Shown one piece after another: positions 20,093-51,826 of a stretch of DNA of 58,369 nt (position 1 is its first letter; every line of letters begins with the position of its first letter). Both the position numbers and the translations under genes were made by a program. This DNA comes from a virus (lineage: Duplodnaviria > Caudoviricetes), in the IMG/VR virus record IMGVR_UViG_3300009160_000050, positions 1-58,369 of that record. One strand, given 5' to 3'. The notes under the pieces are model-generated. The model did not search any database. It worked only from the letters and a program-made list of their open reading frames with translations, and was not told the DNA's origin.

Positions 20093-22237
20093 ATGACAAA
20101 AACTACAGTAAAGATATTAATCGACCCACAAAAGAATTCATTAACTTTTAGTCAAAATTTTAGGATTTTCTCAACTCTTGAGCCAATTACTGGAATTATT
20201 GAATTTACTGACTTCGTTGAAGATCTCATCCTAACCTCACCAGCGGCAATTGATTTAACTAATCTAAAGCGATATATTAGATACTCTAGAAATAGACTAG
20301 ACTGGTCTCTATGGTATGAAGTTGCACCAGGTAATATTGGTGATGCTGGTTCCATGTTCTTGGATAAAAATGACCACTTTTATTTTGAAGTAAAGTATGT
20401 ATATGATGACGGCACAGCAAATGAATTAGCTTCCCCAATTCAAATTAATGAAATTAAGCTAAGATTTGCAAACGGAGTTAGCTTGCCGACTACGTATGCA
20501 CCATCGACTGCGTGTTCAGACGAAAAATGTAATTCGATTATTAGTAATCGTGACCCAAGTTTTAGACCATATGAAGTAGGCAGTGCAGTTGGAATGTTCC
20601 AAGAACTTTCGTACTATACAAACCAGCTATATGGACACCAGGTTGTCTACTTTAGAACTTTACCTGAACTGGACAGTGCAGATTATGTATTTAAGGAGTG
20701 GACACTATATAAAAACGTAGATCGTAAGTGTATTAAAGTTTTAGTACCAAAGAACGCGTTTCCAAGTAATGCTCCAAAATATACTGAGTTTGGAATGGAC
20801 TTTCAGTTACCTTTTGAAATCCACCTTGACCACCGATATTTTCAATCTATTTTTGGTGCCAACTCTGAACCTAGAAAGAGGGACTTCTTGTATTTTCCTC
20901 TAATCAATCGTATGTTTGAGATTCAGGGTTCATACTTACACCGAGGATTTATGATGACTCCTACTTTCTGGAAGATTCAACTTAAGAAATTCAATCCAAA
21001 TATTGATATGTTGCTGAAGGACGAGACTCGTCACTTCCTAGACAACGTAATCACCAACGCTGAACAGTTATTTGGAGATGAGGTAAAGAAAGACATACAG
21101 GATGGAACTATGCCAGAACAATACAAAACTATTTCAACTACATTTGATTCTTCAAGAAGAGCAATCCATCCAGATGTTTCAATTAAACCGCTAAAATATA
21201 CATTTAATTTTGCAAGCTTAATTGAAAATTATTATGACTTTACCCAAATTCCTTTATCGGATCTAAGTTACGAATTGACCTCAACTCATCCACCAGTGGC
21301 AGAGAGCATGAATATTGAAAATCTGCGATCTCTTGATCCGCTGAGTGCACAGTTAAATGATGTAGTATTAGCATATCAAGGCAGTCAACTATTTACTGCA
21401 TGGAAAAATGGAGCGTTACTAACAAATGACAAAAACGTAAAAGGAACTTCTACTCTTTTCTGTAGAGTCAGAGGACCGTTTGATACTATCCCAAATAACG
21501 AAGGTCAATCAGTATCAGGAAGATATGTTAGAGTGGAAGGTTATCGTAATCTTTCATTTAAAGATCAACGCGATTTATTAATCGATACTATTGGTGTCAA
21601 CAAATATATTAAATTTAAAGTGAGACAGACCGGTGTAGTTTATTCAGCTCAACCTAAGTTTAATAAAACAGATTCTCAAAATCTTTCTTATACTAGCTTA
21701 TTTAATGTTCCTTCTACATCAGACGTAGTTAAATTTCTAGATGGATTTGATAACGAGACTGGTACTGGCGTTAAGATTGAAGGATTATTTACCCGATATT
21801 TTGCAACTCACCCAGAAGGAGACCTTGACTTGACAGTTACGATTAATTCTCAAGTAAAGAACTATACAATTGTAAACTTTAAGAGCGATGCATGGCATGC
21901 AATAGTAGTTTCTATTTCAAACGAGTTTAAACAGTGTGGAGTTTACGTATATTCAATTCAAGAGGATCCATCAGATATTATTAATCACAATGATTTTAAA
22001 ACTGTTTTCTCTAGTATCTCGTCTTTAGTTCAAACTGAATTTAATTTAGAGTCATACTATACGTTACCGGTTTCAAACTTGTTAATAACTAATTTACGTC
22101 TTTTCAATACAATGATTAAGGAAGAACAACATGACTTTATTCTAAGTCAACAGTTTATTAAGGACGAGTCAATGTTGCTATTGATTGATAACTGTAAACC
22201 TCAATTAAATCTTCCATACATCGCAAAAAATAGATAA
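20093..22237 (+). CDS. Neck/head-completion protein (T4 gp14-like core) with extra domains
   Basis: LYGHQVVYFRTLP...KYTEFGMDFQLPFEIHLD...FQSIFG...EPRKRDFLYFPLINRMFEI resembles gp14. Lies upstream of the gp15-like gene. Confidence 0.55.
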   Translation: MTKTTVKILIDPQKNSLTFSQNFRIFSTLEPITGIIEFTDFVEDLILTSPAAIDLTNLKRYIRYSRNRLDWSLWYEVAPGNIGDAGSMFLDKNDHFYFEVKYVYDDGTANELASPIQINEIKLRFANGVSLPTTYAPSTACSDEKCNSIISNRDPSFRPYEVGSAVGMFQELSYYTNQLYGHQVVYFRTLPELDSADYVFKEWTLYKNVDRKCIKVLVPKNAFPSNAPKYTEFGMDFQLPFEIHLDHRYFQSIFGANSEPRKRDFLYFPLINRMFEIQGSYLHRGFMMTPTFWKIQLKKFNPNIDMLLKDETRHFLDNVITNAEQLFGDEVKKDIQDGTMPEQYKTISTTFDSSRRAIHPDVSIKPLKYTFNFASLIENYYDFTQIPLSDLSYELTSTHPPVAESMNIENLRSLDPLSAQLNDVVLAYQGSQLFTAWKNGALLTNDKNVKGTSTLFCRVRGPFDTIPNNEGQSVSGRYVRVEGYRNLSFKDQRDLLIDTIGVNKYIKFKVRQTGVVYSAQPKFNKTDSQNLSYTSLFNVPSTSDVVKFLDGFDNETGTGVKIEGLFTRYFATHPEGDLDLTVTINSQVKNYTIVNFKSDAWHAIVVSISNEFKQCGVYVYSIQEDPSDIINHNDFKTVFSSISSLVQTEFNLESYYTLPVSNLLITNLRLFNTMIKEEQHDFILSQQFIKDESMLLLIDNCKPQLNLPYIAKNR

Positions 22238-35988: not shown

Positions 35989-36303
35989 ATGCAATCTTTA
36001 AAATTCAATGGAGATATTACGTTAGACGAAGTCTTCAACCAACACCGAATCTTAATCTATAACAATGTGTTGGATGCAATTCAAAAGAATTACAAAGATC
36101 AGACAATTGAAGAAATAAAAGTCGTAACCATTACGTTAAACAACATTGAGTATTCAATAAACCTTTCTAGAAGTAAATTTGTTAGTGGTCTCGAAAACGC
36201 CATCTCTTTTTACGAAGCAGCTGAGGAATATGAGAAATGTCAAAGCTGCGTGGACATCATCAAAGATCTTAATAAGAAAAAAAAGAGAAAAGCAACTAAC
36301 TAA
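35989..36303 (+). CDS. Hypothetical protein with C-terminal UVR-like helical hairpin
   Basis: LENAISFYEAAEEYEKCQSCVDII. Confidence 0.55.
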   Translation: MQSLKFNGDITLDEVFNQHRILIYNNVLDAIQKNYKDQTIEEIKVVTITLNNIEYSINLSRSKFVSGLENAISFYEAAEEYEKCQSCVDIIKDLNKKKKRKATN

Positions 36304-43982: not shown

Positions 43983-45959
43983 ATGAGACAAAGTAGATTT
44001 GTAAGTCTAAGTTCATATTGCATAGCTGAATATATGTTTGACCCATTAGGGTCATTGGATTTCTATACTGATTCGTTCGTATTACTCCAAAACAATCATG
44101 TAGATGCGCATCAAATTTTTAATATTGATGGCTCATACAGCTCAACAAAGAATATTCAGGATTTAACAGCCGTTCCTATTTCAAATAACACGTATGCATA
44201 CTTAGATAGCGAAAAAACGCCAAACTATTTAGTATATGATTCAGAAATTACTCAAACTCCAATTTCTGGATACAATGTTGTGATGGACAAGGTAAGGTTT
44301 CATTTTGTTTCAGGTTTTGAGCTTGACAATTTTAAAGCCCTAATTCTTAGTGTTAAGCACACTGAAAATGATGGTAAAAACAATTTATTTGCCAGTATTT
44401 TACTTGCACCAGAAACGAGTGCGCAATTGATTAGTTACAATCCAAAACCTCTTTTCTTAAGTAATGCTCTATATGATCGATATATCGATATTTTAGTTCC
44501 ATCAATTAAGAATATTAATGAGGAGTATAAAACTGCGCCAGTGCCTTCTGCGACCTTTGTTGCTGCAATCACACCAAACGCAGTAAACTCAACTGGATTC
44601 ATTTATAATAACCAAATTTCAATCGGCTTAGCTGAATGCGGCAAGCGAAATACTCTGTATACAAATATTGGTCAGACGTATGATACTTTTGAGGTAAGCG
44701 AATATTATGAAGCCCCTCTTTCACAGAGTAACGAATTTGACAATGTCGGTGCGTATATTGATGAAGCAACAGATGGAGATTTTATTGAGTTCTATTTAAC
44801 ATTTAATGCTGGTTTTCCAGCAGATCTTATTGGAATCCTAAATGCTAGAAATCCTTCAGATGACTGGATTATCATTCACCAAATCAGCGTATTCGAACAA
44901 ATTGGCACAAGTTTCAATAATACCTCAAGATTTGTATTCTTCCAAGAAGATAGGTTCGATGAACCGAATACATTTAGACCAGTGTTAAGAAATGCAAATG
45001 AAGCAGTAAGCATGTCAGTTGATTACCTTGCTCGATTAACTAATCGCCGTAATGGTGAACAAATTATTCGAGAAGCTTCTTTTTCGCTAGTGTCACCAAA
45101 GAAATACGGTAAGAAATTAATAACTATTCCTTTATTAGATAAACCGCAGTCTCAGAAAATCTACAATAAAATTATTAAGAAGAATTTTGAAGCAACCAAA
45201 TTATTCATTGAACCGACCTTAAATCCATCAGGTTCACCAGTTAATCCAAACCAGGTAGCAACCGTTGTTCGGACTGAATACGTTCCAATTTTCTTCAATA
45301 ATAGCAGTATTTCTATCTCAAATGTAAGTTCTTTAATGAAGGTTAAAGATTCAATGGAAGAAGTAATCTTTTCACAAGGAAAGCTTAGATTTATCCTTTC
45401 GCCGTTTGACAATATAATTAAGCTAAAGGTTTATACTACAAACAGTTCAAGTGATAAGATGACACTTGCTCCACTGGACTTAAATGTAAACTCAGCAAAA
45501 TATCGCCTTGTTTTTGAAACGAATAGTGGAAAAGTCTCAGTCACTAACTTAAACGATGCCAAGATTGAAAACCTTTCTACTGGTGTACTTGGATTCAAGG
45601 TTTCTAAAAAGGATAGTAGCGCTGTTCTTGCGTCAACTACAAAAACAGTATATTTAGTTTCAGTAGGTCAAGATGGTACCGAAACCTTAATTTATACTGG
45701 AGAATGGAGAAAGCCGACTGAACAGGCTGATGTGGATGCGGCAATTGCTGCAGTAAAAGTAGAAGCCAACCAGGCTAGCCAGACACAGTCTATTCTTGCA
45801 GGAATCAAGCAAAATATTTCTATCTCCGAGGTGACAGGATTAGTTAAACCATTAACTGCTATTAAAACAACGGCAGTCGTTCCAATATCTAATAAATTTG
45901 GAGTAAGTAAACCAAAATCAGTATCTGTGAATTCGACTAACGCAGGGAATGGCGTATAA
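43983..45959 (+). CDS. Putative virion structural protein
   Basis: 658 aa beta-rich ORF in the late region. No recognised motif. Confidence 0.45.
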   Translation: MRQSRFVSLSSYCIAEYMFDPLGSLDFYTDSFVLLQNNHVDAHQIFNIDGSYSSTKNIQDLTAVPISNNTYAYLDSEKTPNYLVYDSEITQTPISGYNVVMDKVRFHFVSGFELDNFKALILSVKHTENDGKNNLFASILLAPETSAQLISYNPKPLFLSNALYDRYIDILVPSIKNINEEYKTAPVPSATFVAAITPNAVNSTGFIYNNQISIGLAECGKRNTLYTNIGQTYDTFEVSEYYEAPLSQSNEFDNVGAYIDEATDGDFIEFYLTFNAGFPADLIGILNARNPSDDWIIIHQISVFEQIGTSFNNTSRFVFFQEDRFDEPNTFRPVLRNANEAVSMSVDYLARLTNRRNGEQIIREASFSLVSPKKYGKKLITIPLLDKPQSQKIYNKIIKKNFEATKLFIEPTLNPSGSPVNPNQVATVVRTEYVPIFFNNSSISISNVSSLMKVKDSMEEVIFSQGKLRFILSPFDNIIKLKVYTTNSSSDKMTLAPLDLNVNSAKYRLVFETNSGKVSVTNLNDAKIENLSTGVLGFKVSKKDSSAVLASTTKTVYLVSVGQDGTETLIYTGEWRKPTEQADVDAAIAAVKVEANQASQTQSILAGIKQNISISEVTGLVKPLTAIKTTAVVPISNKFGVSKPKSVSVNSTNAGNGV

Positions 45960-46027: not shown

Positions 46028-47617
46028 ATGAATGAATTAGTGCAAAGAATACTAGGTGAGCTTAATAACAATCCAGCATTGCGTTCTCAACCTCTAGTAA
46101 AAATTCTAGCCGAGTCGACTACTAAATCTATTGAATTGGGTGAAAATCCAGCCCATATTTATAATGGTCTTAAAAGCGGTCTAGTTTCAATCAATGAAAG
46201 CCTTAATGATTCTAACTTAACGGCAATAATTCAAAACTTGGATACTGTTGCTAAAACACCAGAAGCAAAAGTTGAAAAAATTGCAAAAGCAGTAAATCTT
46301 AGCTCAAAAATTGATGCTATTAAAGAATCTAACGCTTATGCTAATCCTATTGTTAAAACAAAAGTTGATTCATTTAATGATACGTTAAATCGCGGAGCAT
46401 TAGACTTTGCATTATGCGAATCATTTATCAAAACTTTCAGTCAATATGGATATGATTCAGTTATCAAAACTGCAGTAGAACAAGTTAATACTTATCTTTC
46501 TGAAAATCAATCTACTCTAGCAGTATTAAACACTATTTACAGAATGGATTCTATGGGATCTCCTATGTATGCTGGTGTAAGTTCAGACTTAAAAAACATG
46601 TTAATTACTGAAAGCTATAGTGCAGACGTTGTTAAAGTGAAATACGGAACATCTGTTCCACTAGTTACAGAATTAGTAAATACTTTAAGTATTATTGAAT
46701 CTGCAAATACTGGAAACTTTACACTTGGTGAAGGTAACTACGATACTAAAGTAACTAATTTAATTACTCCAGCTTTAAAAACAGCAGACGGATTATTACT
46801 TTATACTGACAATCGTTTCTTATCAATTCGCGAGTCAAAAGGATTACTTGGAAACGAATCTAAAGTTCATGTAGACGGAGCATTTAAAATTGCTGATGTT
46901 GATCCTAATTATGTAAGAACAACATATGGTAATTTCTATGATGTGTGTGAAGCCTATGCAACATTAGGATTTGCAAAATCAGAAGACGGTCTTGGCGTAG
47001 AATCTAAGTCAATCAGAAACTTTACACTTGGTTTCAAATTAAACGAAGAAAAAGGAGTTGATCTTTATATTAATAATACTAAGATCGGAACGCCGGCTTC
47101 AGTTAACGTATCCGAAGCTCTTGCGCTAGAACCAAATATCACTAAAGCAAAAGTTGCTAAAATCGTTGAAAATACTAACTCTTTGTTCAATTTTGAATTT
47201 ATTAAAGAGATTACAAATGAAAGAATATTAAGCGAAGCTACTTTAGTGAAATTAAATGACTCTTACTTTATTTGTGAAAAAGTAAATTCTGCAGATCGCG
47301 TTTGGAATCAAGTTAATGAATTTGAATTATATGAATTCTTTAAAAACAAATTCGGATATGATGTTAGCCCTATTTTCAAAACTAAAATCGAAGAATCAGT
47401 TGCTGGATTAAAGAAAATCGAAGAAAGTAAAAAGGTAATACTTACAGATATCACAAAACTTGAAGGATCAGTTACTAAATTAACAGAAGCAGTTAATGTA
47501 TCTGGAATAGAAGTATCTGAAATTAAGAAACTAGAATCAATTAAAGAATCTATCGAAGCTACAATCAATAAACTTAAACAAGATTATATTGCTCTTGACC
47601 TTTCAAAAAAAAAGTAA
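46028..47617 (+). CDS. Prohead core/scaffold-like protein
   Basis: Many (I/L/V)xE(S/A) motifs (INES, IKES, LCES, ITES, IIES, IRES, VSEA, LSEA, IEES, LTEA) resembling T4 prohead-protease sites. Late promoter. C-terminal coiled coil. Confidence 0.55.
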   Translation: MNELVQRILGELNNNPALRSQPLVKILAESTTKSIELGENPAHIYNGLKSGLVSINESLNDSNLTAIIQNLDTVAKTPEAKVEKIAKAVNLSSKIDAIKESNAYANPIVKTKVDSFNDTLNRGALDFALCESFIKTFSQYGYDSVIKTAVEQVNTYLSENQSTLAVLNTIYRMDSMGSPMYAGVSSDLKNMLITESYSADVVKVKYGTSVPLVTELVNTLSIIESANTGNFTLGEGNYDTKVTNLITPALKTADGLLLYTDNRFLSIRESKGLLGNESKVHVDGAFKIADVDPNYVRTTYGNFYDVCEAYATLGFAKSEDGLGVESKSIRNFTLGFKLNEEKGVDLYINNTKIGTPASVNVSEALALEPNITKAKVAKIVENTNSLFNFEFIKEITNERILSEATLVKLNDSYFICEKVNSADRVWNQVNEFELYEFFKNKFGYDVSPIFKTKIEESVAGLKKIEESKKVILTDITKLEGSVTKLTEAVNVSGIEVSEIKKLESIKESIEATINKLKQDYIALDLSKKK

Positions 47618-47859
47618 TTAGTCTAACTGAATCTAAAAGCAAATTTAACGTCGGAGACCCAGTTGAAGTAAAAGGAAAAATAGGTAAGGTAACTGCAGCT
47701 AATGGAATTACACAAGATTACTTGGTAATGATAGGATTTAAAAACGAACGGTATAAAGAGTCTGAATTAAGTAAACCTACACCAGCTAAAAAAGATACAA
47801 AGAAGAAAGATCTTACTCGAAAGAAGAGACCTAAGGAAAACTCAAATAATATTTCATAA
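47614..47859 (+). CDS. Start-less -1 frame extension of the scaffold-like protein (81 aa; SH3-like + Lys-rich tail)
   Basis: After A9G: VISLTESKSKFNVGDPVEVKGKIGKVTAANGITQDYLVMIGFKNERYKESELSKPTPAKKDTKKK...NIS*. The frame is closed by TGA at 47596-47598. Confidence 0.7.
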   Translation, partial: VISLTESKSKFNVGDPVEVKGKIGKVTAANGITQDYLVMIGFKNERYKESELSKPTPAKKDTKKKDLTRKKRPKENSNNIS

Positions 47860-47866
47860 CACTAAG

Positions 47867-47891
47867 AAAAGGAGCATTTTGCTCCTTTTTT
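47867..47891 (+). terminator. Rho-independent terminator
   Basis: AAAAGGAGC-ATTTT-GCTCCTTTTTT, 7 nt after the -1 frame stop. Confidence 0.85.
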
Positions 47892-48239: not shown

Positions 48240-49067
48240 ATGGATACCAGAATAGACTTCAATACTGCAAAAAAGTTCGATCAAGTAGAATTAGTTGATT
48301 GGAAAACTAGATATGCAGACTTTAAATTTTACGTTAGAAAAGGCCTAAATGAGGTAAAATATAACGTTGGAACAAATGTTTCAAGAGGACCAAACAGTGG
48401 CGAGTATATTAAGCCATTTACTTCCAAGACCATGGGTCAGCCATTGAATATCAATGCAGTCCTTAACCAGTCAGATACCTGGTTAGATATCGGTGGCCAC
48501 TTAGGCTTCTTTTCGATTCGTATGGCAAAACAGTTTCCTAACATCAAAAAGGTAATTTCCTATGAAGCTTTACCGCATAATGTAAGCTTTGCATTGGAAA
48601 ATATCAAATTAAACAATGTTGAAGGAACTTGCGAGTTTGTACAAAAAGCCATCGTCCCAAATGAAGAAGAGTCAATTAGCTTCTTTATTTCTTCTGACTC
48701 TGGAAAACACTCAATCCTTCCTGTAAAAGGTCGTGAAAGTATTACTGTGCCTGCAATCAATATTAATGATGCAATTGCCCAAACTGGTGCAACTGCTATT
48801 AAAATGGACGTTGAAGGTGCTGAATACGAATTAATTAAGGCCGTAACTGACTGGTCAAATATCCGAGTAGTGGTAGTGGAATGGCACTTCAATGCTATGC
48901 GAACCATCACTAAGGACAAAAACTACCGAGTTACTCTTTTCCAAGAGATTATGGCAATCCTTGGCAAGAACTTCGACACTATTCGTCAATTGCCAAACGT
49001 TGAATACGGTAAAAACTTCATCACTCACTTTGTTGCTATCAAGACTGATGGTAAAGAGTCCGTATAA
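48240..49067 (+). CDS. FkbM-family SAM-dependent methyltransferase
   Basis: WLDIGGHLGFF, VISYEALPHN, IKMDVEGAEYELI, VVEWH. Confidence 0.85.
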   Translation: MDTRIDFNTAKKFDQVELVDWKTRYADFKFYVRKGLNEVKYNVGTNVSRGPNSGEYIKPFTSKTMGQPLNINAVLNQSDTWLDIGGHLGFFSIRMAKQFPNIKKVISYEALPHNVSFALENIKLNNVEGTCEFVQKAIVPNEEESISFFISSDSGKHSILPVKGRESITVPAININDAIAQTGATAIKMDVEGAEYELIKAVTDWSNIRVVVVEWHFNAMRTITKDKNYRVTLFQEIMAILGKNFDTIRQLPNVEYGKNFITHFVAIKTDGKESV

Positions 49068-49464
49068 TTTACTACAAGAAATATACCACGAGCATCCATG
49101 GAGGATGCTCGTGTGTTGTATCATGTTAAACTGTACTTCCCGCAAACAGGTGGATCAAGTACGAGAAAAGTTCTTTCGCAGATATCCAGATGCAGTAGAA
49201 GCAGAACGTGCAGATCCTACTGAAATGGCCGAAATTATTGCTCTTCTTGGATTTAAAAATAAACGTACTCAGACTATAATTCGTTTCTCGAGTGACTGGA
49301 TGACCCTAGATTGGTCTGAACCTAATGAATTATATGGAATAGGTAAGTACGGACAAGATTCCTGGGAGATATTCCAGAAGGGCAACCTGAACGTTGTACC
49401 TACTGATGGCGTATTAGATACTTACTTGGCCTGGGCCAGAACCCAACTTCAAAAAACAATATAA
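49048..49464 (+). CDS. MBD4-like HhH-GPD DNA glycosylase
   Basis: LLQE...PWRMLVCCIMLNCTSRKQV, LGFKNKR, HhH ELYGIGKYGQDSWEIF, PTD..L..Y..W. ATG at 49048 overlaps the methyltransferase end. Confidence 0.85.
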   Translation: MVKSPYNLLQEIYHEHPWRMLVCCIMLNCTSRKQVDQVREKFFRRYPDAVEAERADPTEMAEIIALLGFKNKRTQTIIRFSSDWMTLDWSEPNELYGIGKYGQDSWEIFQKGNLNVVPTDGVLDTYLAWARTQLQKTI

Positions 49465-50743: not shown

Positions 50744-51826
50744 ATGAGAAGAATTATTTTAATTGGTTTACTACTAAGTAGTTTAGCTGGGTATTCACAA
50801 ACCTGCAACACCATCACTGCTTATGATTACATGGAAACCTGGAATTGGACAGGTGATTGGTGGATTCCTGCAGCGACGACTAATTTTTACACAAATGCAT
50901 CAGTTAGTCCTAGTGCAAGCGCAGTTTTATATGGAACTGGCGGGGGAAGTAGTGCAAATGAAGCCGACTGGTATTCTATGCCAAACCAAACTGGACTAAC
51001 TCTAAGTTCAGCATATCATTTTAAATTTAGACTTGGATCTTATCGATTTACTTCAACTAGTGCTACTAGAGGAGTAGACGTTGGTGATTTTATCGAAGTT
51101 CAACTGAGCACAAACGGTGGAGTTACCTATACTTCTGAAATCAGAGTCACTGGAAACAGCAATGCCTATTGGTCATATAATACAAATGGTACAATAAACA
51201 AAATCGCAAACGGCACCCTAACTACTTATTCACCAACTGGTGGAGGTGATCGTACCTTAACTGGAGACGGATACTCAGTAATAGATCTTACTCTTCCTTC
51301 TGGGATAACCCAATGCGCAGTTGATATTTACTGCAGAGCCAATGCTGCCGGTGAAGAGTGGTGGATCGACAATATAGAATTAATTGAATATTTTACATGC
51401 GCACCTCTTCCAATTGAACTTATTTACTTTACCGCACAGCCGGTCGGCTCGCGTGTCGTTTTAGATTGGACAACTGCTTCTGAACTTAATAATGACCATT
51501 TTATACTTGAACGATCAACTGATGCTTTGCGATGGACAGAAATAGGAAGAGTCGATGGAGTCGGCACCACTTCACAGCTTTCTACATATCATTTTATTGA
51601 TGCTCACCCAAATATTGGCGCAAACTATTACCGACTTTCTCAAGTAGACTTTGATGGAACTCAAGAGTTTTTCAATTTAGTATATGCAGAAATTAGTGAT
51701 CCACGAATAAACTGTAAATATTCATATTTCGATATAGCTGGACAGGAAGTAGATTATGATTTTGCTCCTCCTGGAATATATTTTAGGTTATGTGGTGAAA
51801 CTATTGAAAAGATAATTAAGAACTAA
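50744..51826 (+). CDS. Secreted protein with Bacteroidota T9SS-cargo-like C-terminal region
   Basis: Signal peptide ending GYS-Q. PLPIELIYFTA...LDWTTASELNNDHFILERSTD...YYRLSQVDFDG Ig/FN3 module. CTD-like YFDIAGQEV...GIYF...KIIKN. Confidence 0.75.
   Translation: MRRIILIGLLLSSLAGYSQTCNTITAYDYMETWNWTGDWWIPAATTNFYTNASVSPSASAVLYGTGGGSSANEADWYSMPNQTGLTLSSAYHFKFRLGSYRFTSTSATRGVDVGDFIEVQLSTNGGVTYTSEIRVTGNSNAYWSYNTNGTINKIANGTLTTYSPTGGGDRTLTGDGYSVIDLTLPSGITQCAVDIYCRANAAGEEWWIDNIELIEYFTCAPLPIELIYFTAQPVGSRVVLDWTTASELNNDHFILERSTDALRWTEIGRVDGVGTTSQLSTYHFIDAHPNIGANYYRLSQVDFDGTQEFFNLVYAEISDPRINCKYSYFDIAGQEVDYDFAPPGIYFRLCGETIEKIIKN

Follow-up and report, generated by a model that had tools for sequence, protein, structure and literature searches.

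The question raised by this locus is whether a run of nine adenines (A9) at the 3' end of a protein-coding gene acts as a recoding site through which the gene product acquires a second domain. The locus lies in a 58,369-nucleotide (nt) stretch of DNA from a virus of the Caudoviricetes (IMG/VR record IMGVR_UViG_3300009160_000050), which was analysed at its full length and is called the window here; it is a whole viral-contig record and is estimated to represent about 23% of the genome. The gene in question, the main gene, encodes a 529-amino-acid (aa) protein and is overlapped at its end by an open reading frame (ORF) in the -1 frame, the extension, that has no start codon before about its midpoint. 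The original prediction held that slipping at the A-run fuses the two, by a programmed ribosomal -1 frameshift according to its title, and that the protein so extended is a scaffold of the phage head. Comparison of related loci indicates that the A9 run at 47605-47613 is very probably a conserved programmed recoding site that yields a predicted fusion protein of 610 aa.

The layout that had been described for the window was borne out by the sequence, including the TCA AAA AAA AAG TAA end of the 529-aa ORF. The -1 frame is shut by a TGA at 47596-47598 and can therefore be entered only at or after 47599; it is stop-free across 47599-47856, provides 81 codons to 47859 after the run, and its earliest ATG, GTG or TTG is a TTG at 47722, about midway. 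After the A9 run, the extension reads VISLTES..., FNVGDPVEVKGKIGKVT and then a Lys/Arg-rich tail. The probability of a stop-free frame of 86 codons is about 0.001 by our own estimate from the base composition of the window, and A9 is the only homopolymer of at least 9 bases in the 58,369-base window, where about 2.6 A-runs and 1 T-run would be expected if bases were independent and identically distributed. As had also been noted, a terminator follows the extension and not the frame-0 stop: the hairpin at 47865-47891 is the only strong one on the + strand after the gene, none was found between the frame-0 stop and 47859 in the window, and similar hairpins also trail the extension in three related loci (L001, L002 and L004).

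A protein search identified 97 relatives (clusters) of the main protein, nearly all of which are 526-543 aa long and which have the C-terminal motif DL.KK(K) in common. From viral and metagenome contigs, 87 loci were taken, and 59 distinct loci, with main-protein identities of 34-99%, were left after removal of duplicates and of loci with a missing end. The loci that were not counted are those where the end of the main gene falls outside the locus (L056, L079 and L080), a fragmentary locus with an interrupted main frame (L081), a cut locus with a main protein identical to that of L067 (L011), loci with the same junction as L055 (L059, L085 and L087) and exact duplicates. A hidden Markov model (HMM) of the extension was built and run over all stop-to-stop frames of the loci, and homologues of the extension were detectable in 35 of the 59 distinct loci. 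Five arrangements were distinguished. Arrangement (i) comprises 22 loci, the window among them, with the extension in the -1 frame and overlapping the main ORF at its end; no ATG, GTG or TTG precedes the domain. In arrangement (ii) (10 loci), a separate gene with an independent start encodes the extension; this gene overlaps the main stop via ATGA or TAATG in two loci and lies 100-140 nt downstream in several others, and in arrangement (iii) (3 loci) the domain forms the C-terminus of a separate ORF of about 255 aa. The extension is absent within 2.5 kb in arrangement (iv) (11 loci), and in arrangement (v) (13 loci) the main ORF runs in frame into other charged tails. When a quick maximum-likelihood tree was made from 56 rows of the main protein, arrangement (i) was found on both sides of the midpoint root and has therefore been kept down to 34-37% main-protein identity, and arrangements (ii) and (iii) fell within one derived clade.

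All 22 loci with arrangement (i) carry eight to ten adenines at the junction (A9 in 20 loci, A8 in one and A10 in one), whereas a run of this length is found at the equivalent site in none of the other 37 loci, where the longest A-run is 2-7. In many of the arrangement (i) loci a stop codon of the -1 frame abuts the A-run, and the frame can therefore be changed only inside the run. An A-run together with an open -1 frame, the pattern that homologous loci had been expected to conserve, is thus present in 22 of the 59 loci. Homologues with an independent start, which had been considered to speak against a recoding event, do exist in some clades, and these are exactly the clades without the A-run; the case for recoding is therefore strengthened by them and not refuted. 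Moreover, the extension aligns well across arrangements, and the ratio of non-synonymous to synonymous polymorphism (pN/pS) in the extension frame was 0.07-0.55 in all 13 pairs of loci with arrangement (i), below the values for both other frames every time; the extensions of the window and L001 differ by 11 synonymous and 3 non-synonymous changes. On these ratios, the extension frame is under purifying selection. Both the coupling of the A-run to the start-less ORF and the selection on the -1 frame support the proposal that two products are made by slipping at the run, and, judging from these comparisons, chance or assembly error is very unlikely to be behind the layout of A9 and extension.

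Further evidence for a link between the two parts comes from 62 proteins that the profile of the extension retrieved at E <= 0.001 in a full HMMER search, some of them stand-alone proteins of about 90 aa and some fused to other modules. The 654-aa protein P0131, which is distantly related to the main protein (hhalign probability 66%, E 5.6e-5, 318 columns), bears two extension-like barrels in frame after ...DKKK and suggests, with moderate confidence, that main protein and extension can be one polypeptide (a "Rosetta stone"). Longer proteins with the extension were not found at E <= 0.001, in a weak search by which the known forms of about 255 aa were missed as well. The features of the locus in the window are listed in Table 1.

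Table 1. Positions of the features at and around the A9 run in the window
Feature	Position	Strand	Remarks
658-aa gene, upstream neighbour of the main gene	43983-45959	+	directly upstream in 79 loci
Main gene	46028-47617	+	529 aa plus TAA; end reads TCA AAA AAA AAG TAA; protein ends DLSKKK
TGA that shuts the -1 frame just 5' of the A9 run	47596-47598	+	
A9 run, probable recoding site	47605-47613	+	frame 0: (TC)A AAA AAA AA(G)
Heptamer A_AAA_AAG	47608-47614	+	frame-0 codons AAA AAG; in register X_XXY_YYZ
Extension in the -1 frame	47614-47856	+	81 codons; stop 47857-47859; predicted fusion 610 aa
Frame-0 stop TAA	47615-47617	+	abuts the A9 run + G; terminates the 529-aa product
L-T-E codons, candidate prohead-protease motif [LIV]-x-E	47623-47631	+	followed by Ser; putative cleavage
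Small beta-barrel (KOW/Tudor/SH3-like)	47641-47769	+	four strands + short helix; structure model
Lys/Arg-rich tail	47770-47856	+	predicted disordered; predicted local distance difference test (pLDDT) 61-70
Intrinsic-terminator-like hairpin + T-run	47865-47891	+	12 pairs; sole strong one on the + strand 3' of the gene

With regard to the mechanism, most expression would stop at the frame-0 TAA and give the 529-aa protein, and a fraction would shift to the -1 frame within the run and give the 610-aa fusion. Two routes would lead to this same protein and may act together. In the first, RNA polymerase would add one A, and the resulting A10 mRNA would be translated in the ordinary way; in the second, tRNA-Lys would slip by -1 on A_AAA_AAG. 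Polymerase slippage is favoured as the larger contributor compared to the ribosomal slip, because the conserved nine A's match the length of the RNA-DNA hybrid, are kept independently of the register and are not accompanied by a consistent RNA structure or Rfam element. According to the available excerpts of PMC5009743, runs of 9 A or T are sites of efficient in vivo slippage by bacterial RNA polymerase, the RNA-DNA hybrid has a length of 9-10 bp, and dnaX of Thermus thermophilus uses such a 9-base run; the run-length threshold for slippage (at least 9) was taken from the same excerpts and is reached by the A9 of the window. Transcription by the multi-subunit polymerase of the host is suggested by the presence of a phage-encoded sigma factor. 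Slippage at the run, as originally predicted, is supported, and its mechanism may be transcriptional rather than a ribosomal -1 shift, a route that the original prediction had also named.

The nine A's are retained in two codon registers. With the register xxA AAA AAA AAG, an A closes the preceding codon in 8 of 8 loci, and with AAA AAA AAA G this is so in only 1 of 13. It is the length of the run rather than the codon register that is conserved over the 22 loci, even if these counts are not independent, as the loci are phylogenetically related. Such a two-register pattern is what selection on run length would predict, and it is not something that a 7-base heptamer would require.

Evidence from sequencing reads was considered at the level of contigs from four runs, one of DNA (X2) and three of RNA libraries (X15, X16 and X17). 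The DNA contig of X2 has A9. The RNA-library contig of X15 (46900-47861, depth 7.3) has one extra A, giving A10 and fused frames, and the RNA-library contigs of X17, from the same strain variant as that of X15, and of X16, from another variant, have A9. The A10 of X15 compared to the A9 contigs could represent a mixed pool of A9 and A10 transcripts. The RNA-library contigs of X15 and X17 were also found to end at 47861/47862, just 5' of the terminator-like hairpin, where the DNA contigs run on; these ends, with no cover by either RNA contig after 47862, are a weak hint of a transcript end and were not counted as evidence.

The most serious competitor of polymerase slippage is a purely ribosomal -1 frameshift on A_AAA_AAG or A_AAA_AAA, of the type known from dnaX and insertion sequences (IS), which would yield the same 610-aa fusion without any share of the polymerase; it is possible and, on the evidence presented here, rather unlikely. 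One or the other heptamer is found in the correct frame-0 register in the window and in all 22 arrangement (i) loci, as this mechanism would need, and in the window the AAG is immediately followed by a stop codon. A stop directly after a slippery site could favour slippage in the P site. Yet seven bases would be enough for the ribosome, while exactly nine A's are found in 20 of the 22 loci, with the neighbouring codon compensating between the registers. Neither upstream nor downstream of the run was a consistent RNA structure found, as in 16 of 17 loci the minimum free energy of the 70 nt that follow the run had a z-score of about 0 in an analysis that did not model pseudoknots, and Rfam contained no frameshift element for these loci, only sub-threshold matches on the terminator hairpin. 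The remaining locus, L010 (4078-4160), is the sole arrangement (i) locus with A8 (then CC) and the only one in which the run is immediately followed by a strong hairpin (-13.8 kcal/mol, z -3.1), as at classic sites, suggesting that this lineage may rely on ribosomal frameshifting. The contigs of the RNA libraries are divided, as two of the three (A9) are what a ribosomal event would leave and one (A10) is not.

The heptamer in all 22 loci and the L010 lineage are compatible with a purely ribosomal shift, and several other observations have to be set against the proposed recoding as a whole. The RNA evidence consists of one low-depth A10 contig from a library that may contain DNA, with A9 in two of three RNA contigs, and this A10 could be a strain polymorphism, DNA carry-over or an artefact of reverse transcription or the polymerase chain reaction. 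The KKK encoded by the run is partly a protein-level motif of the main family. In P0100, a synonymous change creates an ATG four codons before the A-run, and independent initiation apparently occurs or can occur in at least this one lineage. The fusion product, finally, is a prediction from sequence comparison.

Translation of the extension on its own, from a non-canonical start or by reinitiation after the frame-0 stop, would produce no fusion at all and is considered improbable. It would fit the sister clades, which encode the domain as a separate protein, as well as the ATG of P0100 and an ATT early in the -1 frame of the window and of some other loci. However, none of the 22 arrangement (i) loci has an ATG, GTG or TTG before the domain, and near-cognate codons are not conserved, with none in this stretch in L002, L006, L010 and L021. 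Independent translation would also leave the coupling of the A8-A10 run to the start-less extension (22 of 22 loci compared to 0 of 37) unexplained, and it is at odds with the leader, which is found in all separate versions and in none of the arrangement (i) extensions, and with the in-frame fusion known in P0131.

An artefact or a switch at the level of DNA, that is, a true run of A10 in a plain 610-aa gene that was misassembled or a tract of variable length that turns the fusion on and off, is very improbable. Homopolymers are error-prone, and A10 was read in one contig of an RNA library that possibly contains DNA; however, the A-run and the -1 relation of the two frames are found in 22 divergent, independently assembled loci from several collections, and A9 is found both in the X2 DNA contig and in L001, an IMG/VR record with 99% identity. 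In addition, the extension is in frame in none of the 22 loci and in none of the 97 protein clusters of the main family. That the -1 ORF is an unexpressed, decaying relic of a once separate gene, as the missing start codon and the loss of the domain in some clades (11 loci) might suggest, is extremely improbable given that an open, homologous frame is retained, with purifying selection in 13 of 13 pairs, in lineages as distant as 34% main-protein identity, and that the terminator sits after the extension.

The structure model of the extension has a pLDDT of 78 overall and of 82-94 over the barrel, which has four strands and is followed by a disordered basic tail. Foldseek searches with this model gave weak but consistent matches to barrels, namely MutS2-KOW, Spt5/NusG KOW, L24, Tudor and PWWP (E 3e-3 to 4e-2, with a best value of 2.9e-3, and template-modelling scores of 0.45-0.54), and the only match of the extension profile to PDB sequences was L24 (E 0.23). 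The predicted fold thus weakly resembles a KOW/Tudor-type barrel, and the SH3/KOW-like barrel and Lys/Arg-rich tail that had been seen in the extension are supported, with a fold match that is weak. Outside the barrel, the only motif common to all extensions is [LIV]xE, which occupies one alignment column right after the junction in 28 of 28 extension sequences and of which the Glu is invariant. An N-terminal leader precedes the domain in all separate versions and is missing in the arrangement (i) extensions.

The function of such a fusion may be found in the assembly of the phage head. The separate versions begin MK.ILSY(Q/S)(E/D)(F/Y)...L.E before S, with a leader of 15-18 residues that ends at [LI]xE plus a small residue. 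This leader resembles the start of IPIII and IPII (MKTYQEFIAE before A) and of IPI (MKTFKEF...ITE before A) in the T4 record. In T4, according to the available parts of PMC9026906, PMC5694885 and PMC3012670, a capsid-targeting sequence (CTS) of 10-20 residues directs internal proteins that are small and rich in Lys into the core of the prohead and is removed by gp21. A CTS-like leader was seen by eye in 10 separate-gene versions, and only the L-T-E is kept by the extension of the window. Taken tentatively, and with less than even confidence, these similarities suggest that the extension is a cargo like the internal head proteins and that the 529-aa protein is its carrier and resides in the prohead. 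In sister phages, the product of the separate gene would enter the prohead via its leader as T4 internal proteins do via the CTS; in the lineage of the window, the C-terminal fusion to the 529-aa protein would carry the extension into the prohead and replace the leader, and a T4-type prohead protease would release the cargo after LTE, a cleavage that we infer from the motif. The frequency of slippage would fix the copy number of the cargo, and the C-terminus of the 529-aa protein would serve to load small basic proteins into the head. The more specific proposal that programmed polymerase slippage on A9 is a cargo-loading device, by which a fraction of the carrier is fused to a predicted DNA-binding protein of the head interior that is released after [LIV]xE, combines these parts and is doubtful.

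Several findings in related phages are consistent with the cargo model. Of 5 related large contigs, the 2 that are most complete carry genes for Peptidase_S77 (above cut-off) and for a Gp23-type capsid protein. Together with the [LIV]xE column of all 28 extension sequences, these protease genes lend indirect support to the original idea of cleavage at LTE before S. The N-terminus of the main family, M..FV.KIL.E before L, then LVE before S and LGE before N, has a similar look to CTS and cleavage motifs. Moreover, the C-terminus of the main protein carries other charged modules in frame in relatives. The in-frame tail in L036 (2501-4708) scores 30.4 bits, above the Pfam cut-off of 27, against PF25632, the family of the fusellovirus VP2 capsid protein, and VP2 of fuselloviruses is a DNA-binding protein. 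A second basic module occurs in two settings: in G002, one of the related contigs, it is an ORF of 63 aa that stands alone and has a CTS-like start, and in L044 it continues the main protein in frame as a tail.

The cargo model is weakened by a number of other findings. The part of it that concerns cargo, protease and head rests on short motifs; the conserved [LIV]xE is common in the main protein, with 12 occurrences in 529 residues; and the CTS-like pattern, which gave 6 matches in G002 where 1.2 were expected, was designed post hoc, with one of the matches being the extension itself. In G001, the protease and capsid genes are at 53-56 kb, about 100 kb from the main gene, which is located within 160409-166995. 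No Gp23 or Portal_T4 was found in the window, which covers about 23% of the genome and was not searched for Peptidase_S77.

Two observations were made in G002 in passing. Between the matches to Peptidase_S77 and Gp23, from 56544 onward (L096), there is an open frame with repeated, leader-like Y(Q/A)(E/D)Y...NE-like motifs, which may encode a scaffold or core protein of these phages. Small ORFs at 21325, 73088, 133606 and 150677 start with CTS-like leaders.

The role of the 529-aa protein itself can be narrowed down less well. In its structure model (pLDDT 85.7), the N-terminal third is helical, the middle part is beta-rich, and a long helical hairpin lies at the C-terminus. Neither Pfam nor PHROG provided a family for this protein, for the extension or for the 658-aa neighbour, PDB sequence searches with the 529-aa protein, the 658-aa neighbour and the extension profile gave nothing significant, and tblastn searches of 50,697 GenBank phage records with the 529-aa protein and the extension gave no match. 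Comparison of the 529-aa model to the PDB with Foldseek yielded nothing credible (top probability 0.28), a wide VIA-align search matched only the C-terminal helical hairpin, in a generic manner (Z about 10), and the best score in the ESM Atlas (0.75) was uninformative. Matches in BFVD were to uncharacterised phage proteins only, including one of Tenacibaculum phage PTm1 at 12% identity; the A1 profile had no match in the PTm1 genome, and this lead yielded no function. The label of a head scaffold, which the protein had been given originally, is not supported: there is no scaffold match in Pfam or PHROG and no match to a solved fold, the gene is far from the capsid and protease genes in G001, the relative that was checked, and the C-terminal helical hairpin is the only scaffold-like feature. 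The protein may have a role in the core or as an internal protein.

Extended C-termini made from one late gene in two products are known from several phages, including gene 10 of T7 (10A/10B), the T3 capsid protein, the major head protein of the Lactobacillus phage A2, the Listeria phages A118, A500 and PSA, and gpG/gpGT of lambda (available parts of PMC5009743 and PMC10885494). The locus in the window is similar in that the shift is close to the gene's 3' end and that a longer product with an extra small domain would be made at a set ratio. By comparison, the phage cases are ribosomal, with short heptamers and often a pseudoknot or hairpin, whereas the window has a 9-base A-run without a conserved stimulator; the extensions in those cases are mostly Ig (immunoglobulin)-like domains or parts of chaperones, whereas a KOW/Tudor-like barrel with a basic tail is predicted here. 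In addition, the carrier in the window is an uncharacterised non-capsid protein and other clades encode the extension separately, unlike in the phage frameshift cases.

Transcriptional slippage in bacteria, as in T. thermophilus dnaX, Shigella spa13 and mxiE and some IS, resembles the proposed mechanism in its run of about 9 A or T, which has the length of the hybrid, and in a mixture of mRNAs that gives two proteins with a common N-terminus and requires no stimulator in the mRNA, as described in the available excerpts of PMC5009743. The bacterial cases have been shown experimentally, whereas a single A10 RNA contig is available here. The E. coli dnaX and IS3-family sites share the heptamer A_AAA_AAG in the correct register with the window; E. 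coli dnaX has an upstream Shine-Dalgarno-like element and a downstream hairpin, and no conserved counterpart of this hairpin was found here. With the T4 internal proteins IPI, IPII and IPIII, the separate versions of the extension have in common that they are small and Lys-rich, with a leader of 15-18 residues like MKTYQEFIAE, and a gp21-type protease and a gp23-type capsid protein are encoded by relatives of the window. The mature parts of the T4 proteins have no detectable homology to the extension, and they have their own leader, whereas the extension of the window has none and the 529-aa protein would act as its carrier. In the literature covered by our search, seen in part, no case of transcriptional slippage in a phage head or virion gene turned up, which is not proof of absence. 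To our knowledge, conserved transcriptional slippage has not been described before in the morphogenesis of phage heads.

Phage virion proteins that owe a C-terminal extension to frameshifting, and bacterial transcriptional slippage on 9-base runs, are thus already known. The gene family, an A9 site that is kept in two registers without a stimulator, and the nature of the extension appear to be new, as does the coexistence of a recoding fusion, an in-frame fusion and a separate leader-bearing gene in one lineage. If the cargo device is real, the three encodings would be interchangeable solutions within one phage lineage, recoding would be linked to the loading of internal proteins into the head, and the recoding site would suggest a compact scheme for loading capsids with proteins at a fixed ratio. 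After the 529-aa protein, gene callers list no further product or a fragment of 45 aa, so that the extension is overlooked; a conserved domain of a widespread group of large freshwater and marine phages therefore does not show up in protein databases. The 22 loci with the run compared to the 37 without it also constitute a natural experiment, in which selection on run length (by the polymerase) can be set against selection on the heptamer (by the ribosome).

The window also encodes a large terminase of the T4 type, baseplate wedge proteins and the sigma factor, and the sequencing runs that contain the stretch are freshwater or lake metagenomes and metatranscriptomes. The 658-aa upstream neighbour is 51-98% identical across the loci and is more conserved than the main protein. 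In three separate-gene loci, L003 (5597-5700), L012 and L017, a short ORF with a lipoprotein-like signal (MKILVIILVILISC...) lies between the main and the extension genes. The second-longest A-run on the + strand of the window, an A8 at 36277-36284, is located 20 nt before the stop of the ORF 35989-36303, which is just upstream of the sigma-factor gene and in the same frame, so that no frame change is implied by the A8 there. Downstream of the extension, the ORF of an FkbM-type methyltransferase (48240-49067) and an HhH-GPD ORF (48892-49464) overlap by 176 nt as listed; since relatives of the latter align only to its last 70-80%, its start is probably further downstream. Finally, the 360-aa ORF at 50744-51826 has a signal-peptide-like start and a weak Endotoxin_C match below the cut-off as its sole Pfam match, and its C-terminal region is reminiscent of the secretion-sorting domains of Bacteroidota.

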